This document shows positions 29,821-48,921 of a stretch of DNA of 64,000 nt, in pieces. The translations under genes were made by a program, and so were the position numbers. The notes under the pieces were generated by a model. It saw nothing but the letters and a program-made list of their open reading frames with translations. It searched no databases and was not told where the DNA came from. The DNA is from a virus. Taxonomy: Duplodnaviria; Caudoviricetes. Position 1 is the first letter of the stretch; each line of letters starts with the position of its first letter. The DNA is taken from IMG/VR virus record IMGVR_UViG_2912838376_000002, positions 96,001-160,000 of that record; one strand, 5' to 3'.

Positions 29821-29967
29821 CTAATGTCTTTCTTTATAAATCAATTTTTGAGCAAAGTGCAGTAATTCAATTTCAATATTTTGAGGTCGAACACCCTGGT
29901 CCAACAGCTGGTTTACATGAGTCTCCATTTGTTTTTTTAATGACTCCATTATCTCTTCTGCCTTCAT
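29821..29967 (-). CDS. 48-aa hypothetical protein
   Basis: MKAEEIMESLKKQMETH...KERH behind GGAGG. Confidence 0.5.
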   Translation of the reverse strand: MKAEEIMESLKKQMETHVNQLLDQGVRPQNIEIELLHFAQKLIYKERH

Positions 29968-30063
29968 GATTATTCCTCCTAATTAGAATTCATATCATAT
30001 TAAGCATTTGAAATGAAATTATTCAATTTTATACTTACAAAAAAGAAGACCCTTAGAGTCTTC

Positions 30064-30486: not shown

Positions 30487-30847
30487 TTTAAATCACCCTT
30501 TTTAAAATGAGAAGGGGCGTTAGCCCCATCCATTGTTTTGAGAAGAACAATACAAATCTAGTTGAAGATAAATCATATATATATGTTCTTCTATACTCTA
30601 CTCACTCTTTGTTGCTTGATTTGATCTTTGTTGTAAAATAAGCAATTATCTATATAAATTCAAGGGTAATTTCTGGAATTAATATTTTTTTCTAAAAGCG
30701 AACACAAACAAAAAAGCGACCCTATTAACGGATCGCTTGATAATTCATTTACTCGTAGACTTATTATATGTTAAAGAAATTACTCTTGAAGTATTTTAAA
30801 TTAGATTCCCCTAGAATTCAGTTTATTCCACTAAACGTTAAACAGAA

Positions 30848-30997
30848 TTACCAAGTGTCTCCTCTGTTCATATACTGAACATATTCATAAGATTTCTCTT
30901 CAGACAGGTTATTGTTTTCAGTATGCAGTAGACTTAATCCAAATGCGAATGTACCAGTTAATGCAATACTCAATACCAATATTTTTAGTTTTTTCAT
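30848..30997 (-). CDS. Phr signalling peptide precursor
   Basis: MKKLKILVLSIALTGTFAFG signal, ends VQYMNRGDTW; TAATG overlap with rap. Confidence 0.85.
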   Translation of the reverse strand: MKKLKILVLSIALTGTFAFGLSLLHTENNNLSEEKSYEYVQYMNRGDTW

Positions 30998-32094
30998 TAT
31001 TTTAACGCTCCTTTTTCAAAGTATTGTTTTTTAACATTAATACTGCGATGATAATACTCACTTGCTTTAACTGTATTATTTTCGTCATAGTATTTTGTAG
31101 CTAGTTTTTCGGTATATTCTTGCATGCACTCCAATAGGTTTTCTTTCTCAAAATAAGAAAGTCCTTCTTGAACGACTACCTCTAATTCGGCAGCAGGTAC
31201 ATTTTCATTTAACTTCTGTAGGATTCTAAATCTATGTAGATATTCTGCATTGTTTATTTTATGGCAAACATCTAGCCCTCTTTCAATTAATTCTTTAGAT
31301 TGCTCATTATTACCTAACTTATAATTCTCTTCTGCTTCTGAAAATAAAGCTTTGAAATGGTTAGGAATATTAAGAGTAACCTCCGAAAGATGTCTAATTG
31401 CTAAAGCAGACAAGTTTTGGCTCGCATATAACCAGCCTAGATTGCTTCTTACTCGTAGGATTAATTTCTTCTCGTCCATTTTATTTAAAATATTAATAGA
31501 TGAGTTAAAACTTTCTTCGGCTAGTTCGTATTGTTTTAAATCTACACAAGCTAGACCATACACATTTTCACAAGATGCAACATTTATATCATATCCTTTA
31601 TGTTTAGAAAAAATTTCTTTAGCTTTATCTGCATATTTAATGGCTACTAAAGGCTGATACGTCTGATAATTAAAAGTTGAAAATCTATAATAAAACTCTG
31701 CACGTTCTAATATGTCTGGGATATTATCTAACATCTCTTCAGCTTTTAAATAATGCTCTTTTGCTTCAGAAAAATTTGTGAGGACAGTTGAATGTATTGC
31801 TTTGAAGAAATGATAATAGTAATTTAACATTTGATCACTTGGAGCATTTAGCTCTTCAATTCGGTCGAAACTGTCTTTCCCGATTCCAAAATCATCAGTT
31901 AGTAATTTATATCTAAAATCCAATAAAGAATAGTATAGCAATAGATTCTGATCCTGTTCAGCTAAAGCATTAATTTGAGTATCTATCTCTTTTTTTAACT
32001 GAGTGGCTTTTAAAATCTGTTGCGCCCTCATCTCTTGATACCATTCATTAAGTAGCTTGGTTACTTTTTCATTACTAACTTTGTAATCTTGCAT
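30997..32094 (-). CDS. Rap-family TPR regulator
   Basis: KLLNEWY, QDQNLLLYYSLLDFRY, YYYHFFKAIH, ERAEFYY, KGALK end. Confidence 0.95.
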   Translation of the reverse strand: MQDYKVSNEKVTKLLNEWYQEMRAQQILKATQLKKEIDTQINALAEQDQNLLLYYSLLDFRYKLLTDDFGIGKDSFDRIEELNAPSDQMLNYYYHFFKAIHSTVLTNFSEAKEHYLKAEEMLDNIPDILERAEFYYRFSTFNYQTYQPLVAIKYADKAKEIFSKHKGYDINVASCENVYGLACVDLKQYELAEESFNSSINILNKMDEKKLILRVRSNLGWLYASQNLSALAIRHLSEVTLNIPNHFKALFSEAEENYKLGNNEQSKELIERGLDVCHKINNAEYLHRFRILQKLNENVPAAELEVVVQEGLSYFEKENLLECMQEYTEKLATKYYDENNTVKASEYYHRSINVKKQYFEKGALK

Positions 32095-32175
32095 ATGCCA
32101 CCCTCAACCCCTTTTATTTATTTATAGTAAGAATACCATATTTAGTAAAAACGAGTAGGTAATTTTATATATTTA

Positions 32176-32664
32176 TCAACAATTTTCAGACAATTTACTT
32201 TTGCCGTGATTTTGCAAATCATACTGATATGAACCTTCATACTTGTCCCCTGAAAAATCTACGATAGTTAATGTATGAATATGAGGAAAATCCTCTTTTA
32301 ACAGTTCATAAATTTCCTCAATAGACGAATAAAAAGGCTGATCCTTTCTTGAACGATAACTGTTCAAATGGACTTCGCCTTTTCCGTCACCTATATTTAT
32401 AAATTTAAAGAAGATACGCTTAACATTTTTTTCAGGATCTTTGTACTTAAAACGATAATCTCCGTCTACGACATATGTTTCAATTCCTTCTTTATCTAAT
32501 CGACGAATATTCTCCTCCATACTAAGCCCCATCCAACTAGCTATCATTCTTCCGTATATATAAAAATCAGCTTCACAATTTATAGACATTTTTACCGCTT
32601 CTAATAAATCATCCGTCGGTAAGTCAGTAGGTTTTGAAGCATATTCCCGCCACATTCTATACAT
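32176..32664 (-). CDS. Hypothetical protein
   Basis: 162-aa ORF. Confidence 0.65.
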   Translation of the reverse strand: MYRMWREYASKPTDLPTDDLLEAVKMSINCEADFYIYGRMIASWMGLSMEENIRRLDKEGIETYVVDGDYRFKYKDPEKNVKRIFFKFINIGDGKGEVHLNSYRSRKDQPFYSSIEEIYELLKEDFPHIHTLTIVDFSGDKYEGSYQYDLQNHGKSKLSENC

Positions 32665-32957
32665 ATAAAAACCCCCACTTAATTATACTTCTATATTTAA
32701 TACAGCTATTTCTTTTTACGTGGTAATCCATATTTCGTACTTTGGCTTAGGCAACCTTTTGCAATTTTCTTTGCTTCAGCTGAAGATATTTTAACTTTTA
32801 CGCCCATCGTTACCGCCTCCTTAATTCCTCATTATGCCCATTTGCAGAAAAATTATACATGCTGTACTACTTCCCCATCCCCCAACATATGATTTTTATA
32901 TCTAGTACAAAAAGAATGTGTCCCAAACTTAAAATACGATTTTAGGAGTGAAATAGG

Positions 32958-33593
32958 ATGAGTAAAGTAAAAGAGAGGAAGATAAGAAGTGACAAACGTA
33001 AGGACGTGAAGCCGACTGTTGAACTCAGTTTGTATGATTGCGTTTCTCGAATCTCATACATTACTAATACACCAATGAAAGATGTTGGTGAGATATTCTG
33101 TACGCATGGTTTGTATTCTAAAAAAGTTATTGATTACTTGTCCAAAAAGTTCAGAAGAGGCTACAAATTTAAGGATACTATATATATGGGTAATAGAGAA
33201 TTAATGTCTGAACGAGTTAGAAAACATTCAAAATCAACAACAAGAATTACAATGCGTTTTAGACAAGAAACATACGATCATCTAGCTGATTTAGCATATG
33301 CATTAGATACAACTGTTTCAACAGCTACAGCTATTTTGCTCGATGCTGCTGTTAGAAATACGGATATCGTCAACGAATACGTAACTAGGTTTGTTGAAGA
33401 AACCTTAGACGATAATAGAAAAGACCAGCTTAAGAAAGTTCTTACTTACATAAGAAAAGAAAATCCTTATGAAACAAACGAAATTACATTAGCTCAGCTA
33501 ATTAGCTACATCCTAGATGGTTTTAAAGGACATTCAAAACACATCAAGCAGACAATAGAAAGCTGGTTAGACAATGTAACTGAGAGGGACTAA
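32958..33593 (+). CDS. Putative DNA-binding protein (RHH-like repeats)
   Basis: RKIRSDKRKDVKPTV and RITMRFRQETYDHLADLAYAL; the only plus-strand backbone gene. Confidence 0.65.
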   Translation: MSKVKERKIRSDKRKDVKPTVELSLYDCVSRISYITNTPMKDVGEIFCTHGLYSKKVIDYLSKKFRRGYKFKDTIYMGNRELMSERVRKHSKSTTRITMRFRQETYDHLADLAYALDTTVSTATAILLDAAVRNTDIVNEYVTRFVEETLDDNRKDQLKKVLTYIRKENPYETNEITLAQLISYILDGFKGHSKHIKQTIESWLDNVTERD

Positions 33594-34012
33594 GCTCCCT
33601 CTTTTTCTTCGTTTCTTCCCCAATAAGCATCGGGGCCCTGTAGCAATCTTTCCATTAATTGTTCAAACTCGCCCCGATTAATAAAGCCTCTGAAGGTAAT
33701 AGATTCGAAATCTTCGATGCTACCGTCTTCATGTTTATAGCATGTCCACCATTCGTCTCCGCCATTCACTTGATTTACAAATAATAATCGACCATATGCA
33801 AAAGCCGAACGAATAGACCAATTCCCTTGTTTCATCTTCTGTTCTAATTCTTCAAGACTTTGGCAAGTATAAAGACCGTAATCATAGTCGAGTTCCATCA
33901 TTGGATCGTCTTCAAAATCACAACCACCAATCTTCAACCAACTATTCTTCTGACACTTCGCCTTTACTTCTTCTACTGTAAACATAGCTTGGCTCATATT
34001 ATTTTCCTCCAA
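33590..34012 (-). CDS. Hypothetical protein
   Basis: Contains LLFVNQVNGGDEWWT. Confidence 0.7.
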   Translation of the reverse strand: MEENNMSQAMFTVEEVKAKCQKNSWLKIGGCDFEDDPMMELDYDYGLYTCQSLEELEQKMKQGNWSIRSAFAYGRLLFVNQVNGGDEWWTCYKHEDGSIEDFESITFRGFINRGEFEQLMERLLQGPDAYWGRNEEKEGA

Positions 34013-34454
34013 TTATTCTTCTAAGGGACATATCTATTTTAAATTGCAAGCGCCTTTGTTCTTCTTCTTTTTTATACTGTGTCATAATCTCATGAGCTTT
34101 CTTCCATGAATATACATACGCGGGATCTCCACCATATGCACGACTAATCACGCCTGTACTGTCTTTATAAAGATGGGATTTATTAAACCAAGGTAAAAAT
34201 TCTTGAATGGTTGTCCCTCTTCTACAAACTCGTAATCGCTTAGGTGTCATAGTCCAATATGTTTTATAGATATAAGGACGTAAATATCTTTTTAACAAGT
34301 GAAAAGCGTAACGAGGTTTTGTTAAGTTTTCGAAAATAATAATTGTCTTCTGAACCTTATCTTTTTCTTTGCCAAGTGTTTTTAAATCTACTCGGAACTT
34401 TTCTTCTTTGGTTAACAACAGTCGCCGCCATCCTAAGTTTTGTAATTCGTTCAT
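33999..34454 (-). CDS. Basic hypothetical protein
   Basis: 151-aa ORF. Confidence 0.6.
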   Translation of the reverse strand: MNELQNLGWRRLLLTKEEKFRVDLKTLGKEKDKVQKTIIIFENLTKPRYAFHLLKRYLRPYIYKTYWTMTPKRLRVCRRGTTIQEFLPWFNKSHLYKDSTGVISRAYGGDPAYVYSWKKAHEIMTQYKKEEEQRRLQFKIDMSLRRIIGGK

Positions 34455-34524
34455 TGTATGATTCTCTCCCTTCTACAAATAAAATAAGAGCAGGCATAGC
34501 CTACTCATTAACTAAGTACATAAT

Positions 34525-34643
34525 CATTGTTCACTACAAGAAAGGTGCGGTATGGAGGTAGATCGTCGTAGTTAACCGCACCCTTCTCATGAGACAAACA
34601 TTAACAGTTTGAAGGACGCCAACCCTTCTTGTAGTAAACAATG
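34525..34643. repeat. 119-bp element with 17/18-bp terminal inverted repeats
   Basis: CATTGTTCACTACAAGAA ... TTCTTGTAGTAAACAATG; inner GGTGCGGT/ACCGCACC stem. Confidence 0.65.
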
Positions 34644-34664
34644 TAGAGAAAGCAGGCTTATAGC

Positions 34665-35147
34665 CTACTCTCCAATTAAATGCATACGTAATTGAGTAAG
34701 AACCTCACCCAGCCAATTCTTACCTTGCCATGTACTTTTGTTTTGTGCACGAGGATCTGTCTCTAATAATCCAATTCCCCAAATTTTATCGTATGGACTT
34801 GCTTCAACAAGTTCAGTCCCTTTTGTAGATTTTAATACTTCAAGCATTTCGATGTTTTGGGTAAATTTTAAATAATTTGCTCGATAGACAATCTCTTTAC
34901 AATTATCATTCCATAATTCCGCATTAAAAGGAGTTACTTGGCGTCCTAATTCTTTATGTTTACGTGGATCATACCCTGCATCTAGAATTAGTTGAGCGGT
35001 CTTGATATCTCCCATCAACATTGCTTTGTGGTACATCATATATTGCTCTGCACAAGTAAAGACTTGTCCATTCTCCATAAACATAGATTTATGCCATTGT
35101 GAAAATGTTGATTTATTTTGCCAAAAGAACGTGAATTTTTCAGTCAT
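34665..35147 (-). CDS. NADAR-family (YbiA-like) N-glycosidase
   Basis: FSQW, AEQYMMYHKA, KFTQN, LVEASPYDKIWGIG, GKNWLG. Confidence 0.95.
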   Translation of the reverse strand: MTEKFTFFWQNKSTFSQWHKSMFMENGQVFTCAEQYMMYHKAMLMGDIKTAQLILDAGYDPRKHKELGRQVTPFNAELWNDNCKEIVYRANYLKFTQNIEMLEVLKSTKGTELVEASPYDKIWGIGLLETDPRAQNKSTWQGKNWLGEVLTQLRMHLIGE

Positions 35148-35199
35148 TACTACTCTCTCCCTTTGATTAAGTAAGAGCAGGCTTTCACCTGCTCAATTA

Positions 35200-35511
35200 C
35201 TATTGATCTTCTTTTTTCTTTGTAAAGATATAGTAGCCATTGATACTATTGTTCGTATTTTCATTAGTGTTAACAGAAACACTTATAACTTCTAAACTAG
35301 GATTATCTGTTAGAAGCTTTTCATATCTCGGAGGAAGATCAGCTTTTCCATTTTCATGTGGAATGTAATAAAGCTTGTCTTTTATTAACATCTTATAATC
35401 AATACTAATAACTTGATCATCCTGCTTCTGCATATACGGATCGTTATTACATCCTGTTAAAATGGTTGCTGCTAATCCTACAGTTAATACGGTTGCGATT
35501 AATTTCTTCAT
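35200..35511 (-). CDS. Lipoprotein
   Basis: Signal peptide with LTGC lipobox. Confidence 0.75.
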   Translation of the reverse strand: MKKLIATVLTVGLAATILTGCNNDPYMQKQDDQVISIDYKMLIKDKLYYIPHENGKADLPPRYEKLLTDNPSLEVISVSVNTNENTNNSINGYYIFTKKKEDQ

Positions 35512-36245
35512 ACTGCAGCACCTCTATTTAAGTAAACAAATTGTTCTACATATTCACGGTCTTTAGAAATCATAGGAGTCTCATGATCTACTGACCATTT
35601 ACTTCTTAAAGCACCATTCTTTTCGTAGAATTCTTTAATAATGCACACACCACGTTTTTGCCATACAGGTAAGTCATTCCAGTTGATGTTTTTCTCAGTC
35701 ATTAACTTGTCCTGCATATCCTTACCATTAAGGCCCTGTAACTCTTTATGTGGGAAGTTAGCTTGAGCAACCATTGAGATACTATTCTTTGAAGCATCTT
35801 GTTGTCTCCAAATAAAATAGTTTGCTACTTCATCCTGTGGCAATACCTGTGCACGACCATCAAATGTAGCAAGCGGTTTGTCTGGATACTTCGCTCTCAT
35901 AACTTCATTAAACTTTGCAGTTGCCATAGAAGCTGAAACAGAAGCTATCTTTTGAAGGTTATTTTCAAACCAAGATTGAGTTGTAAGCTTGTCATAGTTC
36001 GTAATAAGAATACTAATCTCATCCGACTGATGATAAACCAATTTTGCACCCATGATGTTTTGAGCTAAGTACTTGCATGTTTCCCAAAATGCTTCTGCTA
36101 GATCTTGATCAAAAGGCTTAGTACAACCTTTTGTGTATGTATGAAAGTGTGCTCCATCAATCCTTACAATTACGGGCATTCTTTCAGGCAACTTAATACG
36201 ATATGCATTCTCGTATTTCTTCATGCGATCCCCAAATTTGTCCAT
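35508..36245 (-). CDS. Thg1-like 3'-5' nucleotidyltransferase
   Basis: RMKKYE, VRIDGAHFH, QSDEIS, FDGR, WRQQDA. Confidence 0.95.
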   Translation of the reverse strand: MDKFGDRMKKYENAYRIKLPERMPVIVRIDGAHFHTYTKGCTKPFDQDLAEAFWETCKYLAQNIMGAKLVYHQSDEISILITNYDKLTTQSWFENNLQKIASVSASMATAKFNEVMRAKYPDKPLATFDGRAQVLPQDEVANYFIWRQQDASKNSISMVAQANFPHKELQGLNGKDMQDKLMTEKNINWNDLPVWQKRGVCIIKEFYEKNGALRSKWSVDHETPMISKDREYVEQFVYLNRGAAV

Positions 36246-36248
36246 TGA

Positions 36249-36530
36249 TTACCCTCTCCATTCCACTCTTTCAAAACGATTAACTTTTCCATATGCTTCT
36301 TTCAAGAAAGCAATGCGGTCTTCGCCATCTGCTTCTACGAATTCTTGCATATCCCATGCTAATAACGCTTGAGATGTGATTTCTTGAATATATTTGATTA
36401 ATCTAGTAGGAGCATCATCATTTTGAATAACCTCAAGTGCATTTGATGATTCTTCTAAAATCACATTTAGTAATGCCTCAAGATTTCCTTTGTCGATACC
36501 GTAAATAACCGGTGTTAATGGTGACTTCAT
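36249..36530 (-). CDS. Hypothetical protein
   Basis: GGAGG RBS. Confidence 0.65.
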   Translation of the reverse strand: MKSPLTPVIYGIDKGNLEALLNVILEESSNALEVIQNDDAPTRLIKYIQEITSQALLAWDMQEFVEADGEDRIAFLKEAYGKVNRFERVEWRG

Positions 36531-36557
36531 TATGATTCCTCCTTGAGATTTCTTGCT

Positions 36558-36794
36558 CTAGCCATTGATTTTGGCCCAATTTGGATTGTCTGTTTCTAAT
36601 ACCTCTGTTAACAAGTCACGAATTTCTCTAATTTTCTTTTTATCTATGATAAATACAGAGCCCGTATCATTTTCATGTTCATCATAAAAAGAAAAACAAA
36701 GTCCTTCTCCAATACCTGATCCGGAGACTCCTACATTCATAGAGTCTCCTTCTTGTTTTATAAAGTTAGGTGATAACTCATCTTTAATTTCCAT
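36558..36794 (-). CDS. Hypothetical protein
   Basis: 78-aa ORF in operon. Confidence 0.55.
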   Translation of the reverse strand: MEIKDELSPNFIKQEGDSMNVGVSGSGIGEGLCFSFYDEHENDTGSVFIIDKKKIREIRDLLTEVLETDNPNWAKING

Positions 36795-36799
36795 TGATT

Positions 36800-37783
36800 T
36801 TACCCCGCAAATTCATAAGTATGTATTGACACATTAAATACTTTAGTAGCTTCTTCTAAGATGCCTGTTACTACATTCCAGTCTCCACCTGCTCTTGCAC
36901 AACCCATAAACTTAGGTACACCAATCTTTAGCTGAGATAAGGAACGTTCTCTTAACAAGCGGTCAGTCAAGTAACTGAACAAAGCTTTTTTCAAAGCTTC
37001 ATAGTTCGTATATAGTTGTCGATCTGCTCCGTAGTAAAGTTGCCCATACAAGTTAACGATTTCTATATTTTTTCCGTTATTGTGGACAGCTGCATGAGTA
37101 TATGTACCTAACTTTTCTTCAGGAGAAAATGGAGAAGCACAATCTACCTCATACACAATCGGAAATTCTGCTCGAATTTGTTTAGCAATACCGCTTCCCA
37201 TCGTAGACTGACAATTGGCTTGATGCATTACTACGTCACAATCTGAACGCAAGATATCACCTTTATGTTGAATGATTAATTCTTTCGGATTAATTTGTAC
37301 CATTTTCTTCTCCTTCTTTATGGCATAGTCTACACAGTTGCCTGTACCACCTGTTGTACCGTCCCATACAGCGATTAATTCATCACATTGATTAACCATG
37401 TACTCATTACGTTTTTGCATCAGGTAAGGCTTATATAGTTGTTTAGAAACGTATGTAACAACATCAGCTTGTTCCACAATACTCTTCCACTGATCTTGCG
37501 ATGGTTTTGGCCATTGACTAGAATGTGCAGTACATGGAATAGCCGATTCTAAAGTAATGTTATATCCTTGTCTTTTTAATTTAAGGACAACTAACGCATA
37601 AATCGTGTCTCCACCCAATGCCATACCACTTATTGCATGTACCTGTTTCCCTTGATTTAAATGGGAAAGAAGATGTTCTCGTAGTTTAGTAGCGATAGCA
37701 AGGTTACCTGGTGAAAAATAATCGTACCCATATAATTTATTTGGACGATGTGCAGTTACTGCGATTGTAATTTTTTCTGTCAT
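36800..37783 (-). CDS. YspA/SLOG domain fused to macro domain
   Basis: AVTAHRP, ISGMALGGD, QKRNEYMV, WDGTTGGT; then GDIL..HQANCQSTMGSGIA..GCARAGGDW. Confidence 0.85.
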   Translation of the reverse strand: MTEKITIAVTAHRPNKLYGYDYFSPGNLAIATKLREHLLSHLNQGKQVHAISGMALGGDTIYALVVLKLKRQGYNITLESAIPCTAHSSQWPKPSQDQWKSIVEQADVVTYVSKQLYKPYLMQKRNEYMVNQCDELIAVWDGTTGGTGNCVDYAIKKEKKMVQINPKELIIQHKGDILRSDCDVVMHQANCQSTMGSGIAKQIRAEFPIVYEVDCASPFSPEEKLGTYTHAAVHNNGKNIEIVNLYGQLYYGADRQLYTNYEALKKALFSYLTDRLLRERSLSQLKIGVPKFMGCARAGGDWNVVTGILEEATKVFNVSIHTYEFAG

Positions 37784-37843
37784 AGCTAAATCTCTCCTTT
37801 AATTAAATTCAAAAAAAGGAGGGGGCGTTAGCACCCCTGGGAA

Positions 37844-38182
37844 TCAATTTTGTTTGATTGCTATGTTAATAGCTTTTTTGAAGTTGAATCTGTATTTGCT
37901 ATTCATAAAACCTATTAAGTAGTCATGATAGTCCGGTTCGATGTTCTTAAGATATGCTAATTCTCCATTAAGTTCTAAAGCATATCCTCTATCTCGTTGT
38001 CCTCGATAGAATTGGAATAACATCGTTTTAATTCTTCGCTTACGCTTATGACCAACTGTAAGGTTATGATCTTTGTTGTACATAATGCCAAGGTTCCAAT
38101 TCTTTCCCGATTTTGAACCATATCTCGTTTTTGAATCCTTAATAGTGAATGGAGTTCCTTCTTGGGTTAATATTCCTTTAAC
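37844..38182 (-). pseudogene. 3' half of split retron-type reverse transcriptase
   Basis: Open frame VKGILTQEGTPFTIKDSKTRYGSKSGKNWNLGIMYNKDHNLTVGHKRK...; in frame with the 5' half when joined at ACTAATT. Confidence 0.85.
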
Positions 38183-38759
38183 TAATTGTCTTTTTACAAA
38201 AAAGTTCTGGAATAAAATTAATATAAATGCCTATTACACAGGGGCTTCTTTTTCATTATTACAACATAGTTGCAGACTAACGAGGATAACTTTTACAGTT
38301 TATTTTAGAATCAATTACAAAATAGTCTTGGACTATCTGTTCATAAGTTGATATGCATTGTATTTCCTCGTCACTGTTTCATTTAGCACATTGAAAATTT
38401 TCTCTGCATTCTTTAATGTTAGCAACGTATTCTACTAATAAATGATATCTTTCTTTTGCAGAAGTTTAATATATGAACCTAACTGTGTTCTAACTTCATT
38501 ATTTTTTGGTTTCCTCTTCCAAAATTAAATCTTCTTTCTGATACTTTTTCTCCAAACTCTTCTTTTTCGAATATTTCTCTAAGGATAGAGAATATTCTTC
38601 TTGCCAGTCATTTTCATATTTGTTTTACCGACAAGTTGCAGCTCTATTCAAACTATTCAGGTTTGCTCGGATATGATTTAGATTTTTTATGCGTACAATA
38701 TATGTTCTTATGAAAAAACGGATACCTTATGAAAAGGTATCCGTTTTACTTCTTATTTT

Positions 38760-38930
38760 GATATAAATTACGCAATTCTGGTTTTATTGAAATACTAGTA
38801 CGCACCATTTTTGCTTATTGTTCTGCATCTTCCAAATTAGAAGCATGACCTAATTGTAATAACACCCCTATTGCAACTGTACCTGTCCAATTATGTCCAC
38901 TAGAACAATGGAAATGGCATCCACCACATT
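38760..38930 (-). pseudogene. Protein-tyrosine-phosphatase-like remnant
   Basis: FHCSSGHNWTGTVAIGVLLQLG...EQ*AKMVRTSISIKPELR; degenerate HCxxGxxR loop and internal stop. Confidence 0.55.
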
Positions 38931-38985
38931 GAGATTAGCCTCCAGGTTACTAGGAAAATCATTACTAATATAATTTACTAATTTA

Positions 38986-39975
38986 TCATGTGCTTGTTTT
39001 TTTATAGTTACTTTCCTTTTCTCGCAACAAAATATTTGGTACAACACGTATATAAATAAGCTCACTTATAAGTTCAACAATAGTTTGAGTAACAATTACA
39101 GCTGCTACTAGAGTGCTTATATCGGGCAATGCTAATCCTAAAGGAAGTACTACTAAAGAGTTTCGAGTAAAACTACTAAAAATAAGTGTTCTTCCTGATC
39201 CAACATCTAATTTAAATAATTTGGCAATATATTTAGCAATGATTGGCATAATTACCATGAATGCAATATATACAGGAATAACTTGAATAACCTGATCTAT
39301 AAATTCAGGAAGTTTTCCTATTTGGGATGCAACAACTACAAATAAAGTCCAAGCCATAAAAGGAACAGGTAACCAAGCCGATATGTTTAAAGCCTGTTCT
39401 CCTACTGGAGATTTCCGAGCTACTATTTGCACTAGTATAGCTATACCAAGAGGTAGAATAATAAGCCCAAGAAAAGCCTCAATAAAAGGACCTGGTTCCA
39501 CAATTTTTGCTGTGTCACTCCCCATAAATAACCATAAATAGAAAGGTAATAGTAACATTTGTACAATAAAGAGTATAGGTGTAGAAATTAAAATTAGTTT
39601 TTCATTTCCTTTACCTAAAGAAGTAAAGACAATCACATAATCAATACAGGGTGTCAATAATACTAAATAAACACCAATTAATAACGGTGGATTATCTGGT
39701 AAAAAGCTAGCTAGAATCCATACCACTATTGGAACCACTATAAAATTAGTAGTTAATAACGCACTAATAAATCTAGAATTTCCAAATGCATCTTTCAATG
39801 ACATAAATGGTATTTGTGAAAACATACTATACATCAATAAGGCGATAGCAAATGATATAGCGGATTCTAAACTACCTCCACTGTTTGGCCAGATAAACCC
39901 AAGTATAGCAGCTACTATTAGCACTATAAAATATAGAGACACTTGCTTTTCTTCAAGTTTTTCTCGTGTAATCAT
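38986..39975 (-). CDS. Acr3/BASS-family transporter (arsenic-resistance-like)
   Basis: About 10 TM segments, LLTPCIDYVIVFT, TRNSLVVLPL. Confidence 0.85.
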   Translation of the reverse strand: MITREKLEEKQVSLYFIVLIVAAILGFIWPNSGGSLESAISFAIALLMYSMFSQIPFMSLKDAFGNSRFISALLTTNFIVVPIVVWILASFLPDNPPLLIGVYLVLLTPCIDYVIVFTSLGKGNEKLILISTPILFIVQMLLLPFYLWLFMGSDTAKIVEPGPFIEAFLGLIILPLGIAILVQIVARKSPVGEQALNISAWLPVPFMAWTLFVVVASQIGKLPEFIDQVIQVIPVYIAFMVIMPIIAKYIAKLFKLDVGSGRTLIFSSFTRNSLVVLPLGLALPDISTLVAAVIVTQTIVELISELIYIRVVPNILLREKESNYKKTST

Positions 39976-40255
39976 AAAAAAATCTCCTTTATTTAATTCA
40001 TTTACCTCAATACGCATTTAAAGTAGTAATAACCTTTTCACTAACACAATGTACTGTTTGAGCTAAAACGAAAATTATGATAAAAATAGTAAGAATGGGA
40101 GTAGTATAAGTATACTAATTTCAAATTTTGAATTTCTCCTTAAACTAAAAAAGATATATGTGCACAACATCCTCTTACTTATGTAATGTACATTAAGATA
40201 CTCATATCCGCATTATGGATATTGACTCCGAATTTAGAAAGGAGGTCCCTTTAAA

Positions 40256-40804
40256 GTGAATAAGGAAGAATGGGAAGCGATTCAATCCAATAATAAAAAA
40301 TATGATGGATATTTTTACTATACTCTTTCTACGACTAAAACCGTCTGTCGTCCATCATGTACATCTAGAACCCCAAATCCAAAACATGTTTCTATTTATA
40401 AAAATCTAGATTTAGCAATTGCAGCAGGATTTAGACCTTGTATAAGATGTAAACCTGATTTAAAAAATTGGAAAGGCTATAAAGAAGAAGTATCAAAAGA
40501 AACTTTGCTATATATCCAAAAGAATTACAAAAGTAAATTTAGCTTAAAACAAATAGGGGATGCTTTAGAGAAAAACCCTTACTATATACATCGGAGTTTT
40601 AAAGCAATTAATGGTATTACCCCTCTGAAATACTTGCATACATTAAGAATCGAAGAAGCTAAAGGATTATTAAATAATAAGCACCTTCTTGTAACAGATA
40701 TTGCACTAGAGGTGGGGTATAATGACAGCACTCAATTTTCGGTGAAATTCAAGGAATTCACAGGATTATCACCCACTAGTTACAGGGATTCATTTGTTAA
40801 ATAA
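40256..40804 (+). CDS. adaA: AdaA-like protein (Ada Zn domain plus AraC HTH)
   Basis: CRPSCTSR, GFRPCIRCKP, IALEVGY..F. Confidence 0.85.
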   Translation: MNKEEWEAIQSNNKKYDGYFYYTLSTTKTVCRPSCTSRTPNPKHVSIYKNLDLAIAAGFRPCIRCKPDLKNWKGYKEEVSKETLLYIQKNYKSKFSLKQIGDALEKNPYYIHRSFKAINGITPLKYLHTLRIEEAKGLLNNKHLLVTDIALEVGYNDSTQFSVKFKEFTGLSPTSYRDSFVK

Positions 40805-40836
40805 TATGGGACAGATTACATAAGTTCTACATATTT

Positions 40837-40880
40837 AATAAGAGCCTTATTACATTTTATAATGTGATAAGGCTCTTATT
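40837..40880. terminator. Bidirectional terminator
   Basis: AATAAGAGCCTTAT/ATAAGGCTCTTATT between convergent genes. Confidence 0.75.
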
Positions 40881-40892
40881 TTTTAATACATT

Positions 40893-41828
40893 CTATTTCT
40901 GTAATCCATTAATAATTGTATCTGTATTCCATTTCATCATTTTCAAGTAAGTATCTCCATCCTCACCTGATTTACCAAGCGAGTCTGTAAAAATTGTACC
41001 AGCAATCGGTACATTTGTTTCTTTTGAAACAGTTTCCATGCTACGTCGATCTACACTTGTTTCAACAAATAAAGCCGGAACTTTGTTTGTTTGAATTAAA
41101 CTTACAACATCTCTAATTTGATCTGGCGTACCTTGATTCTCTGAGTTAATTTCCCAAATGTATCCCGTCTTAATGCCATATGCTTTTCCAAAATATTTAA
41201 ATGCACCTTCACTAGAGATTAAGAAACGCTTTTCTTCAGGGATTTGATGAATTCTATTCACTGTCTCATCATGCAACTTTTGAAGTTCGGCTACATACTT
41301 TTCGGCATTTTTAGTATAGAACTCTTTATTTTTAGGATCTTCTTTAATTAATGCCTTTTTCACATTTTCAGCGTATACAATACCATTTTTAATATTCATC
41401 CATGCATGTGGGTCTGGCTCTTTTTCTAATCCTTTTGTTTCTAAATAAATAGCTTCTACACCTTCACTTACTTTATAAACAGGTGCATCTTTCGCTGATT
41501 TATTTGCCGTTTTTAATAGCTTTTTAAACCACGCTCCACCTTCTTCTAGGTTTAGCCCATTGTAAAATACCATATCTGCATCTGTCATTTTCATAACATC
41601 TTTTGGTAGTGGATCATACTCATGCGGGTTAGCTCCGATTGGAACAAGACTATGAATCTCAACTTTATCTCCACCAATTTGCTTCACCATATCATATATA
41701 ATGGAGTATGTGGTTACAACTTTTAATTTTCCATTCCCCTCTTCTTTTCCATTTGTGTTACTCGAACACGCTGTTAATGCAAATACGAAAATACAAAGTA
41801 TCGATAATAAAACATTTTTAAATTTCAT
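40893..41828 (-). CDS. mntA: Mn/Zn ABC transporter substrate-binding lipoprotein
   Basis: LTAC lipobox, NPHEYDP, DPHAW, SEGAFKYF, FTDS. Confidence 0.92.
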   Translation of the reverse strand: MKFKNVLLSILCIFVFALTACSSNTNGKEEGNGKLKVVTTYSIIYDMVKQIGGDKVEIHSLVPIGANPHEYDPLPKDVMKMTDADMVFYNGLNLEEGGAWFKKLLKTANKSAKDAPVYKVSEGVEAIYLETKGLEKEPDPHAWMNIKNGIVYAENVKKALIKEDPKNKEFYTKNAEKYVAELQKLHDETVNRIHQIPEEKRFLISSEGAFKYFGKAYGIKTGYIWEINSENQGTPDQIRDVVSLIQTNKVPALFVETSVDRRSMETVSKETNVPIAGTIFTDSLGKSGEDGDTYLKMMKWNTDTIINGLQK

Positions 41829-41845
41829 CTTTATCCTCCAATCAA

Positions 41846-42712
41846 TTATGACAACTCTGCTCTATTTTTTCTAATTTTGATAGCTCGCCAAAACAAACCT
41901 TGTGACGGTGAGAAAAAGAATGCTAATGCGAACAAGAATGTTGCGACAAGAACAATTGTTGCACCTGAAGCAAGATTATAAGAGAAACTAAAATATAACC
42001 CTACTACAGATGAAAGCGCACCAATGCTTGCTGCTAAATAAATCATGACCCATAAACGGTTTGTTAATAAATACGCTGTAGCCGCTGGTGTAATAAGCAT
42101 CGCAACGACTAGAATAATTCCAACAGTTTGAAGTGAAGCTACTGTAACCATTGTAAGGAGAATCATTAAGCCATAATGAATCCATTTATTCGGTAATCCA
42201 TAGCTTTGCGCCATCGTTGGATCAAACGTGGATACGAGTAATTCTTTGTAAAACAACATTACAAGACCAATAATGACCACTCCAATAATCAATGTCATCC
42301 ACATATCAGAAGAACGAACCGATAAGACATTCCCGAATAAAATATGATACAAATCAGAACTACTCTTCATAAAGGTAATTAAAATAATCCCTACAGCGAA
42401 AACAGATGTAAACATAATTCCTATCGCCATATCATGTTTAATACGACTATTTTGACTTACAAATCCGATTCCTACTGCAGTAATAACACCTGTTAAAACC
42501 GCTCCTATAAAATAGTTCATTCCAATCATATAAGAAAGCGCTACTCCTGGAAGAACAGCATGCGAAATGGCATCTCCCATTAAAGCCATACCTCGTAAAA
42601 TAATAAAACAGCCAATTACGCCGCAAATAACTCCTACCATAACGGAAGTTAATAACGCTTTCTGCAGAAAACCGTACTGCATTAATGCATCTATAAATTC
42701 TACAATCTTCAT
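41846..42712 (-). CDS. mntC: Mn/Zn ABC transporter permease
   Basis: GDAISHAVLPG, ILFG, QTVGIILVVAMLITPA. Confidence 0.92.
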   Translation of the reverse strand: MKIVEFIDALMQYGFLQKALLTSVMVGVICGVIGCFIILRGMALMGDAISHAVLPGVALSYMIGMNYFIGAVLTGVITAVGIGFVSQNSRIKHDMAIGIMFTSVFAVGIILITFMKSSSDLYHILFGNVLSVRSSDMWMTLIIGVVIIGLVMLFYKELLVSTFDPTMAQSYGLPNKWIHYGLMILLTMVTVASLQTVGIILVVAMLITPAATAYLLTNRLWVMIYLAASIGALSSVVGLYFSFSYNLASGATIVLVATFLFALAFFFSPSQGLFWRAIKIRKNRAELS

Positions 42713-43458
42713 GATGAATGTACCTCCGCTGCATTATTAAACAATATGCCGTGATTTACATACGCTTTTGACATAACAGTTGGTTCTAATACTTGCCTTA
42801 CTTCTCCGTAATGAATTAAGCTCTTATTCAATAATAGTAATTTATCAAAATAGGACTCCGCTTTACTTAAATCATGATGTACAACAACAATTGTTTTCCC
42901 TTCTTTACGTAATTCTCTAAGAATTTTAATAATTGTCTCTTCACTCGTTACATCAATTCCAACAAACGGTTCATCTAAGAAAAATATCTCCGCCTTTTGT
43001 GCTAATGCTCTCGCTAAAAAAACACGTTGTTGTTGTCCACCTGACAACTCACCGATTTGGCGATTTTTAAACTCTTCCATTCTGACTTTTTTTAGACATT
43101 CAAATGCCCAATCCCGATGTTCTTTCTTTGGTCTTTTCATCATTCCTAAAGATGGATACGTTCCGATTAGTACCACATCTAAAACTGTAATCGGGAAATC
43201 CCAATCTATATCACTTCTTTGCGGTACATATGCAACACGCTTTCTAACGCTTCGAATATCCTCACCAAGAATTCGTACATATCCCTTATCATTTGGGATT
43301 AAATCTAAAATAGCTTTCATTAAAGTAGATTTCCCTGCTCCATTTGGGCCAATAATTCCAACTAGCTTTCCCTTTTCAATCTCAAAAGAAACATTTTGAA
43401 CCACTTGATTCCCTTGATATGATATAAATAAATCTTTGACAACTATAGCCTCAACCAT
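42709..43458 (-). CDS. mntB: Mn/Zn ABC transporter ATPase
   Basis: GPNGAGKST, LSGGQQQR, LDEPF, VHHDL. Confidence 0.92.
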   Translation of the reverse strand: MVEAIVVKDLFISYQGNQVVQNVSFEIEKGKLVGIIGPNGAGKSTLMKAILDLIPNDKGYVRILGEDIRSVRKRVAYVPQRSDIDWDFPITVLDVVLIGTYPSLGMMKRPKKEHRDWAFECLKKVRMEEFKNRQIGELSGGQQQRVFLARALAQKAEIFFLDEPFVGIDVTSEETIIKILRELRKEGKTIVVVHHDLSKAESYFDKLLLLNKSLIHYGEVRQVLEPTVMSKAYVNHGILFNNAAEVHSS

Positions 43459-43498
43459 TTTTTATGCATTCCCCTTTCTTTTTTTCGTTTATATAATT

Positions 43499-43600
43499 AT
43501 TTTGCACAAAGGCAACTTTTTAACAAAAAAATATATGTTGTATCACATTATACATATAATGTAAATTCTATTCCATATCCAAGTTTCCCTAGTGAAACTT
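43499..43600. promoter_or_regulatory. Two MntR-box-like palindromes
   Basis: TTTGCACAAAGGCAACT (about 43501) and AAGTTTCCCTAGTGAAACTT (43581-43600) upstream of the mnt operon. Confidence 0.6.
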
Positions 43601-43804
43601 TTTTATATGAGTCAAATTATATAAGCTCGGTGAAAATTTGTAAACTGATTTTAACTATTTTATGAACATATTGTGAAAACTTATCCCTCAAGAATAAAAA
43701 ATATCATACTTTTCTTAAATTATTTCGACACATATATTAGCCAATTCTATTAGTAATAAATAATAAACATATTATTTATTACTAATAGAATTGAGAGCAT
43801 ACAA

Positions 43805-44164
43805 TTGTGCAACCCAAATGATTTAGATGTGAAAGCCAAGTTTATGCGTGGCTTTGCTGATAAAACAAGATTACAAATTCTTAAATGTATGATGGATGGT
43901 GAAAAAACAGTATCTGAAATTGTAGAAATCATTCAAGGAAATCAGTCGAATATATCCCAACATCTAAACTGCTTAAAAGGATGTGGCATCATTCTTGGTA
44001 GACAAAAAGGAAAATATGTCTACTATTCCTTACGCAATACGCAAATCGAACAGTTACTCACAATGTTCGATATTGTTTTTCATAAAGTACAAAACAAAGT
44101 AGCAGCATGTGATAAAAACGATGCTTGTTTATCTCAAAAAGGAGAGGACTGTCCTGACAGATAA
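43805..44164 (+). CDS. ArsR/SmtB-family metal-responsive repressor
   Basis: ADKTRLQIL, VSEIV, QSNISQHL, GKYVYYSL. Confidence 0.9.
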   Translation: MCNPNDLDVKAKFMRGFADKTRLQILKCMMDGEKTVSEIVEIIQGNQSNISQHLNCLKGCGIILGRQKGKYVYYSLRNTQIEQLLTMFDIVFHKVQNKVAACDKNDACLSQKGEDCPDR

Positions 44165-44450
44165 GAAAGAGAATAAAAAACAAACAAATTGCTGTCAGGA
44201 TTCCACTTTAATACTTAAAAAAGAAGAGTTAACAAAAGAGATTTCTTGTTGTAGCAGTGAAAACGAAACAGTACAAGAAGAAATAACTAAAGAAACTTTG
44301 GCATGTTGTTCCTCTAAAAAAGAAATTCCTATTATCTCAGGTATTAAGGAAACCTCTTGTTGCAGTGGTAACAACGATTCTATAACAAAACGTTACTCCA
44401 ACACCTATACTGAATTCTTAATAGATGTACTAATATTTATTAATAACTAA
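44154..44450 (+). pseudogene. Cys-Cys-repeat N-terminal fragment, probably of a heavy-metal P1B ATPase
   Basis: Four CC motifs directly after arsR, then an early stop; no ATPase body. Confidence 0.55.
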
Positions 44451-44498
44451 AAGCTCCTAACATATTAGTCATATATAACATGTTAAGAGCTTTTAGTT
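44445..44498. terminator. Terminator-like hairpin
   Basis: AACTAAAAGCTC...GAGCTTTTAGTT. Confidence 0.6.
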
Positions 44499-44550
44499 TA
44501 AATGTACCACTTTGTTTTGTATTGTACTATTTTCTTTTAAGTTCACAGCG

Positions 44551-45306
44551 TTAGTCTACAACTTTGTTGTAATTATACACTAATTCAACTATTTCTTCAT
44601 GCCTAAATGGTTGTTTGCTACTAATTAGCAAGTCATCAGCATACCTAGTGTAAATAAAGGATTCCCCACTTCTTTTTGCCAATGCGTTGTTGATTTGAGT
44701 ATCTATACTAATCATCAACCAATTTGTAAGTATCGGAGAAAGCGGAGTTCCTTGCGGTAATTCATTTTCATGACAGGCTAAACCACATAAACTACTAATA
44801 AAACTCTTATAATCTGTTTCAGTCATTAAGCTGAATGGATACAGCTTTTTTAATTGGATAGTAATAACTTGTTCAGAACAATTGTTAAAGAATTTCTCTA
44901 AATCCATTTTGAGAAACCAATTTGATTTATTCCGTTGGTGACATTGTATTGCTTTTAAACAGTCACGGTTTGGGATGTATGCATAAGCTGAATCATGTGG
45001 TACTATACCAATGCTTTCTAAATCAAATTTAATTTCTCTCATAAAAGATTTGAGTTTTTCTTCTGGTGCTTTAATTGTTCTAAATCCACCAGTCATTTTA
45101 GGTAGATTAAAAATCGAATACTTAATAGCCGACTGATTATTGGTTAACCAGTCTTTTATTTTCTTTGTTAGTCCGAGTATTTGTTTATTTATTGCTTCGA
45201 ACTCACGGTACTGCTCAATTGTTATTTCTTCGGATTTTAATTTGGTAGTACTAAAACGCTGATACTTTGAATCATTTTGATTCTTTGTGTTGTGTGTATA
45301 GTACAT
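44551..45306 (-). pseudogene. 5' part of split retron-type reverse transcriptase
   Basis: PKMTGGFRTIKAP, HDSAYAY, LKMDLEKFF, LPQGTPLSP, YTRYADDL; stops 8 codons after the junction; start MYYT at 45306. Confidence 0.9.
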
Positions 45307-45335
45307 ATCAATACCCTTTCTTTTTTTATCTTCTT

Positions 45336-45593
45336 GTTTAATAGTTCTTCGAAAGCATGTTCGTATATTTGACGAAGTATAGTGCAGTTCTCTGGATCTA
45401 ACTCCAGCTCCTGGAGCTGAGATGTTGCGCAGCCTCATCCGGGGCACCTGAAGCTCCCCCGGAGATGGGTGCAGCGCCAGCTGTTACTGGCCGTCTGGGT
45501 CCAGATGCACATTTCTCTCTCTAAAAGTGTGTTTCTCTTGCTCATTTGCTAAGAGATTTTAATTTGTCAGATTAAAATTTACAACTATTAAAC
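45336..45593 (-). ncRNA. Retron msr-msd RNA
   Basis: 11-bp a1/a2 inverted repeat 45336-45346/45583-45593, G right after the 5' arm, two msr-like hairpins, GC-rich branched msd; directly upstream of RT. Confidence 0.8.
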
Positions 45594-45696
45594 TTAATCC
45601 TAAAACGCTTTAGCTAATACAATCTTTTAAAAGTGTTTTGTCAATTAGTATTTTATGGACAACAAAAAAAAAGTAGGGGCGTTAGCCCCTACTAAA

Positions 45697-47703
<2,007 letters not shown>

Positions 47704-47721: not shown

Positions 47722-48921
47722 TTAGTGAGCCTTGAAATTGTACAGTGGTTTAATAATCTCTGCAATCTCTAATGAGTCTTTCGTATGCTCAACGATTTCA
47801 GCCATAGGTTTATATGCCATAGGGCTTTCATCTACTGTTGATTGTACTACAGATGTAGTCCATACATCCTTCATTGTTTCCTTGTATTCTTCAAGAGACA
47901 CCAACTCTTTTGCTTTGCTTCGAGACATTAATCTCCCTGCTCCGTGTGGGCCTGAAAAATTCCAATCAGGATTTCCTTTACCATAAGCTATAATACTACC
48001 ATCACGCATATTTAAAGGAATAATAACGCGCTCTCCTGCTTGAGCAGAAATAGCACCTTTGCGTAGAATCATATTATCCATATCAATGTAATTGTGAATA
48101 GTCGTAAACGAGTCTGCAACTTTCCAGTTCATTCTCGTAACAATTTCATTAACCATTGCTTTACGGTTTAACAAAGCATAATGTTGGGCAATTTTCATAT
48201 CGTTCATATAATCTTTAAATCCTTGACCTTCTAAGTAGGCAAGATCCTTTTGGATTTTTGGTTTCTTCACCATACTTAACGCCTCTTGGATTTCGGATTG
48301 GCGGCCGGCTGCTATTAATTCAGCAATAATACGGTCTTTCTCATCCTTAACATTTATTAACTCATCATAAGCCCGATTTTGATAATGTTCTGCAATTTGT
48401 TTACCTAGATTACGAGAACCAGAATGAATAACAAGTACAACTTTATCATCTAATTCGTTCAATTCAACGAAATGATTACCTCCCCCAAGAGTACCAATTG
48501 AATCTTTAGCACGATCTAATTTAAAGGGTGCTCTTACGTCACGAAAGTTCACTTGTTTTGAAAGTGGATGGCGTTGACTACTAGAACGAACATTGAAACC
48601 GCTCGGTACGTACTTGCGAATAATTTCGTCTAACTGGTCAAAATTAATTTCTGTTTTGTTTTTATCAATAATTGCAACTTCCATCCCACACCCGATGTCA
48701 ACTCCGACAAGATTTGGGACAATTTTATCAGTGATTGTCATTGTGGTACCAATTGTACAACCTGCTCCTGCATGAGTATCGGGCATAATGCGGATATTAC
48801 TACCCTCAGCAAAAGGCTGGTTACATAATTCAATAATCTGACCCATAGCTGTATCTTCTACGTTGTCTGTGAAAACTTTAGCGCTGTTATATTTACCTCT
48901 TAGTTCTAACATTGTATTCAC
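47722..48921 (-). CDS. rtcB: RNA ligase RtcB
   Basis: MPDTHAG, GVDIGCG, GGGNHFVE, HSGSR, HNY, HGAGR, DESPMAYK. Confidence 0.95.
   Translation of the reverse strand: MNTMLELRGKYNSAKVFTDNVEDTAMGQIIELCNQPFAEGSNIRIMPDTHAGAGCTIGTTMTITDKIVPNLVGVDIGCGMEVAIIDKNKTEINFDQLDEIIRKYVPSGFNVRSSSQRHPLSKQVNFRDVRAPFKLDRAKDSIGTLGGGNHFVELNELDDKVVLVIHSGSRNLGKQIAEHYQNRAYDELINVKDEKDRIIAELIAAGRQSEIQEALSMVKKPKIQKDLAYLEGQGFKDYMNDMKIAQHYALLNRKAMVNEIVTRMNWKVADSFTTIHNYIDMDNMILRKGAISAQAGERVIIPLNMRDGSIIAYGKGNPDWNFSGPHGAGRLMSRSKAKELVSLEEYKETMKDVWTTSVVQSTVDESPMAYKPMAEIVEHTKDSLEIAEIIKPLYNFKAH

Follow-up and report, generated by a model that had tools for sequence, protein, structure and literature searches.

The window analysed here, a stretch of 64,000 nucleotides corresponding to bases 96001-160000 of the 244,829-bp IMG/VR virus record IMGVR_UViG_2912838376_000002, was found to carry a retron-type reverse transcriptase (RT) gene that is split by an island of foreign genes. 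This island is very probably a non-autonomous and partly decayed Tn7-like transposon with metal-homeostasis cargo, and its insertion into the phage RT gene is read as a recent knockout combined with a gain of cargo, with no switch involved. The original prediction, made from the letters of the same DNA, had described an RT gene split in frame by an island of 6,398 bp and had proposed either a recent knockout of the retron or a switch, like that of the skin element, trading metal-homeostasis genes for retron activity. The transposon and the retron-like phage gene are both of known kinds, the former being a tns-less Tn7-like element and the latter a previously noted retroelement. Knockout of a gene by a transposon is ordinary biology, and only the location is mildly unusual.

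The split RT gene and its empty site

The 5' part of the RT gene starts at 45306 (MYYTHNTKNQ...), passes the YADD motif and reaches ...RHEEIVEL followed by V (GTG), after which the open reading frame (ORF) runs 9 codons into the island (YNYNKVVD*), with the stop at 44551-44553. The RT frame resumes at 38182-38180 as (GTT)V-KGILTQEGTPF...KNWNLGIMYN...KQN*, and neither part contains a stop or a frameshift. The 242 codons of the 5' part, the shared V and the 111 codons of the 3' part give 354 aa, equal to the length of the intact homologue P0001, and all the sequence statements of the original prediction on how the halves end and join were correct.

A protein search with the 5' half gave 313 proteins at E <=1e-10 among 574 candidates, the best being P0001, which stands for 36 member sequences and lies on a 235,716-bp contig. 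P0001 is covered by the two halves, at 98% (5') and 96% (3') identity, with no column missing or doubled, and alignment showed that they also tile four further full-length relatives without gap or overlap; the joined protein thus aligns continuously with intact RT homologues, as the original reading demanded. Profile matches were colinear, with positions 8-191 of NF038233 (289 positions) matched by the 5' half and 207-285 by the 3' half. The 5' half also matched PF00078 (RVT_1) in Pfam at 6.6e-19, and the 3' half matched positions 212-293 of 304 of the PADLOC RT_II-A model.

The break lies 17 codons past YADD, between this motif and the thumb-like C-terminal region, and the insertion removes the whole C-terminal third of the RT, including the KTRxGS and NWNLGIMYNK blocks that are invariant in ten relatives. 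The present truncated product would consist of 242 native residues and a 10-residue tail (the kept V243, then 9 island-encoded residues). As the gene is cut between YADD and the thumb-like region, the RT would have lost its activity and the split retron is presumably inactive.

The uninterrupted gene was found in relatives. The IMG/VR loci L006 and L007 carry the same RT, with 100% identity over residues 1-225, and the 3' part in L006 matches that of the window fully save for one E/K difference upstream. In both loci the DNA is continuous through the junction, where AATTAGT stands only once. Four public sequencing runs were compared over 37600-45600, and three of them (X1, X3 and X4) gave contigs that join 38180 to 44579, skipping exactly 6398 nt, with 7 ambiguous letters, while X13 contributed no contig. 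The 7-nt repeat that flanks the island would be trivial by chance when taken alone, and it is the empty sites in relatives that make the observation solid. Together with the intact 354-aa P0001, these sites confirmed the in-frame split.

Since both RT pieces are undecayed, the insertion is regarded as recent. The knockout alternative of the original prediction was therefore supported, for a gene that is of retron type and that is fully identical to L006 over the residues compared. The window allele can be viewed as a natural null RT allele that stands alongside intact and intron-bearing ones, and this set of alleles offers a ready comparison for the role of a phage-encoded retron.

Table 1 Features of the split RT gene, the inserted element and the adjoining DNA. 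Positions are those of the window; strand is given as +, - or, where neither applies, a full stop.
Feature	Position	Strand	Description and basis
Intrinsic-terminator hairpin and T-run after RT	37811..37835	-	partner 45665-45689, after ligase gene
3' part of retron-type RT	37844..38179	-	111 codons plus stop (codons 38179-37847); thumb-like region, KTRYGSK...NWNLGIMYN block
Left copy of target-site duplication, CTAAT	38182..38186	+	sequence; single copy in L006
Non-autonomous Tn7-like transposon (very probable)	38187..44579	.	6,393 bp, TGT...ACA termini
L-type end	38187..38335	+	terminal TGT, three ~22-nt TnsB-type repeats; motif scans
tnsD pseudogene remnant	38391..38678	-	tblastn against residues 344-460 of the 526-aa L014 TnsD, 36%, E 5e-7
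Tyrosine-phosphatase cargo remnant	38749..38913	-	C-terminal 59 residues, one stop; tblastn 71%, E 8e-22
SBF/ACR3-related permease	38986..40017	-	PF01758 1e-19; 85% aa identity to L014 gene
Ada zinc-binding and AraC-type HTH regulator	40256..40804	+	PF02805 1.4e-24; PF12833 2.1e-19
MntABC-type metal ABC importer	40893..43458	-	PF00005, PF00950, PF01297
Perfect 24+24-nt palindrome	43742..43793	.	inverted repeat 100% complementary, between divergent ABC operon and arsR
ArsR/SmtB-family repressor	43805..44164	+	PF01022 4e-16
Cys-rich 113-aa ORF overlapping end of arsR	44109..44450	+	four CC pairs: NCCQDS, SCCSSE, ACCSSK, SCCSGN
R-type end	44500..44579	-	terminal ACA (plus strand); strong repeat 44552-44574, weak repeats 44520-44542 and 44500-44522
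5' part of retron-type RT	44579..45306	-	242 codons plus first two bases of Val243; sequence/ORF list
Right copy of target-site duplication, CTAAT	44580..44584	+	sequence; contigs of 3 runs join 38180 to 44579
Empty insertion site of B.th.I3	44630..44631	-	directly after GATGACT of the YADD codons
Candidate retron ncRNA (msr-msd)	45336..45593	-	258 nt, upstream of RT, same strand

Ends, tns remnants and cargo of the element

On the plus strand the junctions read ACTAAT[TGTCTTTTTACAAAAAAGTTCTGGAATA ... TAGTCTACAACTTTGTTGTAATTATACA]CTAATT, the outer brackets enclosing the element, with TGT at 38187-38189 and ACA at 44577-44579. The repeat described in the original prediction as a 7-bp core is real (ACTAATT on the plus strand, at 38181-38187 and 44579-44585), but the better reading is a target-site duplication of 5 bp, CTAAT, to which the first T and the last A of the transposon have been added, one base per side. 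The sizes agree with this reading, an element of 6,393 bp and a duplication of 5 bp giving 6,398. The TGT...ACA termini recur in related elements on the plasmids of Bacillus sp. HNR-4 (L014), B. cereus SB1 (p1, L002) and B. pseudomycoides (pN451-2.1, L015), although one left end in L015 reads TGC, and the terminal T and A stay with the element where the flanks differ (left end of L014, right end of L002, right and second left ends of L015). A member in L015 that has no annotated tns genes (19997-36164) carries AATAC on both sides, and the single flanks at the L014 and L002 ends differ again from both CTAAT and AATAC. As T and A travel with the element and the L015 member is flanked by AATAC, the duplication was taken to be of 5 bp, as in Tn7. 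Since insertions of this family have different flanking repeats, the repeat was assigned as a target duplication and not as a conserved att core.

Both ends of the island carry arrays of TnsB-type repeats whose core is TTACAAnAnAGT. Those of the left end are at 38192-38214, 38257-38279 and 38313-38335, with spacings of 65 and 56 nt. The 23-nt repeat of the right end recurs at 38257-38279 with 3 mismatches, such that the window contains 2 matches at <=3 mismatches against 0.00 expected from shuffles. Within 38000-45000, copies with 5-8 mismatches are confined to the ends of the island, save two at 8 mismatches, at 42955 in the island and at 44709 in the RT gene. The predicted TnsB sites are laid out asymmetrically, with three spaced sites on the left and, as seen in the more complete SB1 copy, a dense array on the right. 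A site in SB1 p1 shares 92% identity with the right 185 nt; there the right end has four repeats at 20-nt spacing and finishes ...GTAATTATACA, as in the window. The window lacks ~60 bp of this end, namely three of the repeats spaced at 20 nt.

The left 165 nt of the island matched only two records of the plasmid database PLSDB, one of them L014. Over 163 nt, the end of the L014 element shows 75.9% identity to the left end of the island; it too starts with TGT, its first and second repeats have a spacing of 66 nt and, as judged by eye, a weaker third repeat follows after ~56 nt. The homologous end in L014 abuts tnsD-tnsC-tnsB-tnsA, followed by arsenic, mercury and copper cargo. These genes are annotated as TnsD, an ATP-binding protein, a Mu-transposase-C-domain protein and TnsA, and Pfam recognized in the proteins the N and C domains of TnsA, Mu-transpos_C, TniB/AAA_22 and TnsD/TniQ. 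The tnsD of L014 is itself split at 21732-23658 by an IS110-family insertion, into a 119-aa TniQ N-terminal fragment and the 526-aa remainder.

The ORF-free 0.8 kb at the left of the island is colinear with the L014 element and contains two gene remnants. That of tnsD, whose DNA also matches the L014 gene, has 5 stops in 96 codons. The second belongs to a tyrosine phosphatase whose gene sits just upstream of tnsA in L014; by blastn, 38684-38914 matches L014 28352-28592. Between the two remnants ~7.6 kb of L014, comprising most of tnsD together with tnsC, tnsB and tnsA, is missing from the window.

Using the L014 proteins in tblastn, no TnsA, TnsB or TnsC was found in the record. The whole 244,829-bp record also contains no rve-type transposase and no serine recombinase, and Pfam disclosed no recombinase or transposase among the 8 island ORFs included in the 11 proteins scanned. 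The sole tyrosine recombinase of the record (G000:50368-50838) lies ~84 kb from the island. For these reasons the element cannot move itself, and it was filed as a non-autonomous derivative because tnsA, tnsB and tnsC are absent and only a decayed remnant of tnsD is left. Such tns-less derivatives of the Bacillus Tn7-like family recur, being found in the window and twice in L015. The two L015 members stand in tandem, at 19997-36164 and from 36171 onward; the first, of 16 kb, carries dioxygenase, MFS and SDR cargo, and the second is broken by an IS1182-family element.

The island (38188-44578) has a G+C content of 32.0%, against 36.4% in the rest of the window, and comprises seven ORFs, for a permease, an Ada/AraC regulator, a lipoprotein, an ABC-3 permease, an ABC ATPase, ArsR and the Cys-rich protein. 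In the window the plus strand carries only 2 of the 49 ORFs of >=150 aa, one of them being the Ada/AraC regulator; the other two plus-strand genes of the island, arsR and the Cys-rich ORF, are shorter than 150 aa. Relatives of the first permease bear the RefSeq name 'arsenic resistance protein' (annotation in L001 and L014). The importer consists of an ATPase (42709-43458), a permease (41846-42712) and a ZnuA/MntA-type lipoprotein (40893-41828), and its region is 91% identical to pE33L54 and ~94% identical to separate contigs of runs X3 and X4. The palindrome is probably the operator of the ArsR repressor. No Pfam or NCBIfam match was obtained for the Cys-rich ORF, whose product may be a metallothionein-like metal binder.

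Origin of the insertion

The following course of events is proposed. The element has kept both transposon ends and has lost tnsA, tnsB, tnsC and most of tnsD. It would already have been non-autonomous on entering the phage, because decay is seen in the tnsD and phosphatase remnants but not in the RT halves. An autonomous relative present in the host cell would have provided TnsABC and a target selector in trans, with the phage DNA either resident or replicating there. The insertion generated the duplication CTAAT and separated YADD from the thumb-like region of the RT.

Several observations weigh against this proposal. Taken alone, the insertion fits a 7-bp duplication with GT...AC ends equally well, and the choice between 5 and 7 bp was decided by the family. 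The right end has one strong TnsB-type site, against four in the SB1 copy. By analogy with Tn7, such a reduced right end should transpose poorly. Its contraction may therefore post-date the insertion, or the analogy with Tn7 may fail. No autonomous partner with matching ends was found, the closest tns-bearing element being only 76% identical at its end. When the whole island was compared with PLSDB, 8 records matched, none covering >=80% and the best covering 59%. In species-representative genomes the 19 nt of the right terminus were met exactly in 5 places, as single matches in unrelated taxa that were taken as chance, and for a degenerate pattern of the terminus in IMG/VR a second repeat occurred within 220 nt in 0 of 56 matches, so that this search disclosed neither a donor nor a second phage copy. 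Last, the island-bearing allele is in no indexed sequencing run, the best share of sampled words being 0.27 (20 of the 24 runs listed contain part of the stretch).

The programmed switch of the original prediction, in which precise excision by a recombinase at the 7-bp core restores the RT and trades away the metal cargo, as for skin or SPbeta, is very improbable. Both RT halves are indeed intact and come back into frame exactly when joined at the repeat, but a recent insertion explains intact halves equally well. The record does encode one tyrosine recombinase, but nothing links this distant gene to the ends of the island. The island contains no recombinase of its own, its leftover 0.8 kb is made of the tnsD and phosphatase remnants, its ends are Tn7-type with TGT...ACA and TnsB-type repeats, and the flanking repeat varies within the family (CTAAT versus AATAC). 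With rve and serine recombinases also absent from the record, the switch was not supported. Precise excision would restore the gene as a matter of sequence arithmetic, and to this extent the earlier statement stands, but no mechanism for it is encoded. Cut-and-paste transposition of the Tn7 type leaves a double-strand break, and the donor is not resealed. Precise excision would therefore need a rare recombination across 5 bp, or replacement from an intact relative. As nothing in the element or in the phage provides site-specific excision, the event was regarded as a knockout without a switch. The skin element and SPbeta of Bacillus subtilis are gene-splitting elements that are excised during development, and they encode their own site-specific recombinase and have att cores. 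Like them, the island is a multi-kb insert that splits a gene in frame, such that the halves would read through once rejoined; unlike them, it has neither recombinase nor att core.

It is also unlikely that an autonomous Tn7-like element of ~14 kb or more inserted itself and then, inside the phage, lost tnsABC(D) and part of the right end, for example under packaging-size pressure. This sequence of events would account for the ~60 bp of packed repeats missing relative to SB1 and for the one deletion joint between the tnsD and phosphatase remnants, and insertion would have been efficient with all end sites present. However, with 5 stops in 96 codons of the tnsD remnant and one stop in that of the phosphatase, beside undecayed RT halves, the decay looks older than the insertion, and tns-less members exist elsewhere, in L015. 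That the island is an assembly chimera, a bacterial fragment misjoined into a phage contig, is scarcely credible. The mntABC part does resemble separate bacterial contigs in runs X3 and X4 (~94% identity), and the whole island-bearing allele was met in no indexed run; yet the junctions are exact on both sides, with a 5-bp target duplication and matched transposon termini, which misjoins do not make. A group II intron was also considered for the island and rejected, as the 5 weak Rfam matches in 36000-47000 (E up to 1) included no intron or retron family and the island has genes on both strands.

Passages of published work place two TnsABCD sets in island BCEGI-1 of B. cereus ATCC 10987 (PMC2359905) and describe B. 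cereus Tn7-like elements with arsenate-resistance cargo (PMC8649781), and Tn7-like TnsABCD elements with arsenic cargo are thus documented in the B. cereus group (PMC2359905, PMC8649781, PMC8725734). The window element shares with Tn7 and with these elements the TGT...ACA termini, the 5-bp duplication, the arrays of ~22-nt repeats (spaced on the left, packed on the right), metal or arsenic cargo and an end homologous to one that abuts tnsD. It differs from them in lacking tnsA, tnsB and tnsC, in retaining only a dead fragment of tnsD, in having one strong site at the right end and in lying inside a phage gene instead of a TnsD-type attachment site. In Tn7 the cargo lies beyond tnsE; unlike in Tn7, the cargo of the Bacillus family lies between the packed end and tnsA. 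Laboratory mini-Tn7 consists of ends and cargo and is moved by TnsABCD supplied in trans. The window element is proposed to resemble it, as ends and cargo mobilised by proteins from elsewhere in the cell, although it is natural, derives from internal deletion and decay, and keeps pseudogene remnants.

A Tn7-family element in a large Bacillus phage would represent a concrete route by which phages acquire host genes, here a Mn/Zn-type ABC importer, an ACR3-like permease and three metal-type regulators or binders. A literature search that was not directed at this question yielded no account of a Tn7-family element inserted in this way in a phage.

The RT as a probable retron and its genomic setting

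The retron character of the RT was assessed by profile searches. In PADLOC, the 25 top models listed for the 5' half all describe retron RTs, with 9.5e-36 for the first; RT_II-A, RT_I-A, XI and XII are among the models matched, and the 3' half matches RT_II-A and RT_I-A. The best NCBIfam match is retron_St85_RT (NF038233), with 125.6 and 44.5 bits for the two halves, below the curated cut-off of 235 but well ahead of the group II maturase and Drt2/Drt3a models. The block aligning with the retron 'VTG' region reads NLG.

The candidate non-coding RNA (ncRNA) upstream of the RT has at its two borders perfect inverted repeats of 11 nt, GTTTAATAGTT (45593-45583) and AACTATTAAAC (45346-45336), with a G directly after the 5' arm and with the 3' arm ending 30 nt short of the RT start codon. 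The region, between the ligase terminator and the RT, is G+C-rich and folds with -92.7 kcal/mol (z = -3.67), and 0 of 100 shuffles folded equally well. Rfam gave no match for the candidate.

When IMG/VR was scanned using ten aligned full-length RT relatives, at least 589 stretches were found, at least 550 of them encoding a relative, and the best 80 of the 589 were kept. In 13 of the 27 relatives examined, a perfect repeat of 10-13 nt is arranged as in the window, and in 12 of the 13 its length was reached by at most 1 of 50 shuffles; 11 have only 8-9 nt, which is not above shuffles, and 3 have none. The arm sequences vary between loci yet stay complementary, and of the 13 sequences printed 12 have a G directly after the 5' arm. 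When the 13 ncRNA regions were aligned with MAFFT the 5' (msr-like) part aligned and was seen, by eye, to share a conserved block with a small co-varying hairpin, whereas the variable middle did not align.

On these sequence features, the retron label seems reasonable for the RT and its ncRNA. Retron-Sen2/St85 (type II-A) and other retron RTs share with the window the best profile matches and an upstream, same-strand ncRNA closed by inverted repeats. The window RT differs from Retron-Sen2/St85 in scoring below the 235-bit cut-off, in its NLG block, in being phage-borne and in that no effector gene was identified at the locus. The gene 3' of the RT (36800-37783, minus strand), which encodes a YpsA-type SLOG domain fused to a macro domain and is kept in L006 and L007, was considered as effector and not adopted, as a terminator separates it from the RT. 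No ORF of its size was seen 3' of the RT in the 40 distant relatives listed, for which no direct comparison was made. The SLOG-macro gene has weak DarG and ShosA profile matches, and its product could be an ADP-ribose-removing counter-defence protein.

The at least 550 viral contigs, many of 45-130 kb (L074-L151), encode RTs that are 32-57% identical and have the YTRYADD and NWNLGIM blocks in common. An RT ORF could be recognised in 65 loci, and in 37 of these an ORF of 215-235 aa from a single uncharacterised family (phrog_37075-like, ~221 aa) directly precedes the ncRNA region; its product is a candidate partner of these distant RT relatives; in the window no such gene is adjacent to the RT. 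It may be, though this is offered tentatively and we would not count on it, that the RT belongs to a large phage-borne and apparently effector-less retron clade that makes msDNA for the phage's own purposes and is a repeated landing place for mobile DNA. Were this true, the hop of the Tn7-like element would be a natural case of a transposon ferrying host metal-uptake genes into a phage of ~245 kb.

The same RT gene is the target of a second mobile element. Right after GATGACT, L006 (9676-11541) and L007 (1197-3062), positions being approximate, contain a group II intron of 1,866 nt (Rfam RF01999, 113 bits, and RF00029, 59.7 bits) with a 420-aa maturase (TIGR04416, 408 bits). The site is that of B.th.I3; it is filled in both loci and in DNA contigs of runs X3 and X4, and empty in the window, where the published B.th.I3 target AGGTATGCTGATGACT is present. 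Two different mobile elements have thus struck one RT gene 17 codons apart. In the RNA run X1, one contig (record 3) passes over the intron site with no intron in it, while DNA run X3, of the same organism label, has the intron; this hints weakly at splicing of the intron and at transcription of the gene in such lysogens.

B.th.I3 was described in a retroelement of B. thuringiensis israelensis ATCC 35646 (RBTH_06733 and RBTH_06731) by Tourasse and Kolsto in 2008 (PMC2504315), and in the passages of that paper on the retroelement no msr/msd was found and a possibly transposable new retroelement with 25-bp direct repeats was suggested. As far as those passages describe it, the window carries the same RT gene family and the same flanking 25-nt repeats, in an allele that is intron-free and split 17 codons further on by the transposon. 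In contrast to the absence of msr/msd stated there, a1/a2-like repeats and a following G are present here, in a position conserved across relatives. The terminator hairpin (GGGGCGTTAGCCCC type plus T-run) occurs in 12-14 copies at <=6 mismatches across the record. Being members of this terminator family, the 25-bp repeats are no sign of mobility, and by their sequence they are ordinary phage terminators and not transposon ends. What can be added to the account in those passages of PMC2504315 is that the retroelement gene has an msr-msd-like ncRNA, terminator repeats and a wide spread in phage contigs.

The record is called a phage on the basis of its IMG/VR and CheckV class and of PHROG hits, and CheckV rated the 244,829 bp as 100% complete and of class linear. 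Of phage structural genes only Terminase_6N was looked for, and no match to it was found in the record; megablast of 36800-46000 against 50,697 phage records gave 0 matches. The island cargo DNA matches plasmids of the Bacillus cereus group in PLSDB, and the nearest intact RT, P0001, takes its name from 'Bacillus cereus group sp. N6'; on these two matches the phage host is placed in the Bacillus cereus group or near it. The genes flanking the split RT are nearly all on the minus strand and serve phage replication and nucleotide metabolism. They include those for a 1,185-aa DNA polymerase, RtcB, NAD-dependent ligase, Thg1-like tRNA-His guanylyltransferase, UvsX-like recombinase, thymidylate synthase and endolysin. 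The genes for the Thg1-like guanylyltransferase (35511-36245), the RtcB RNA ligase (47725-48921) and the NAD-dependent DNA ligase (45700-47667) are clustered around the retron, all on the minus strand, in what looks like an RNA-repair style module.

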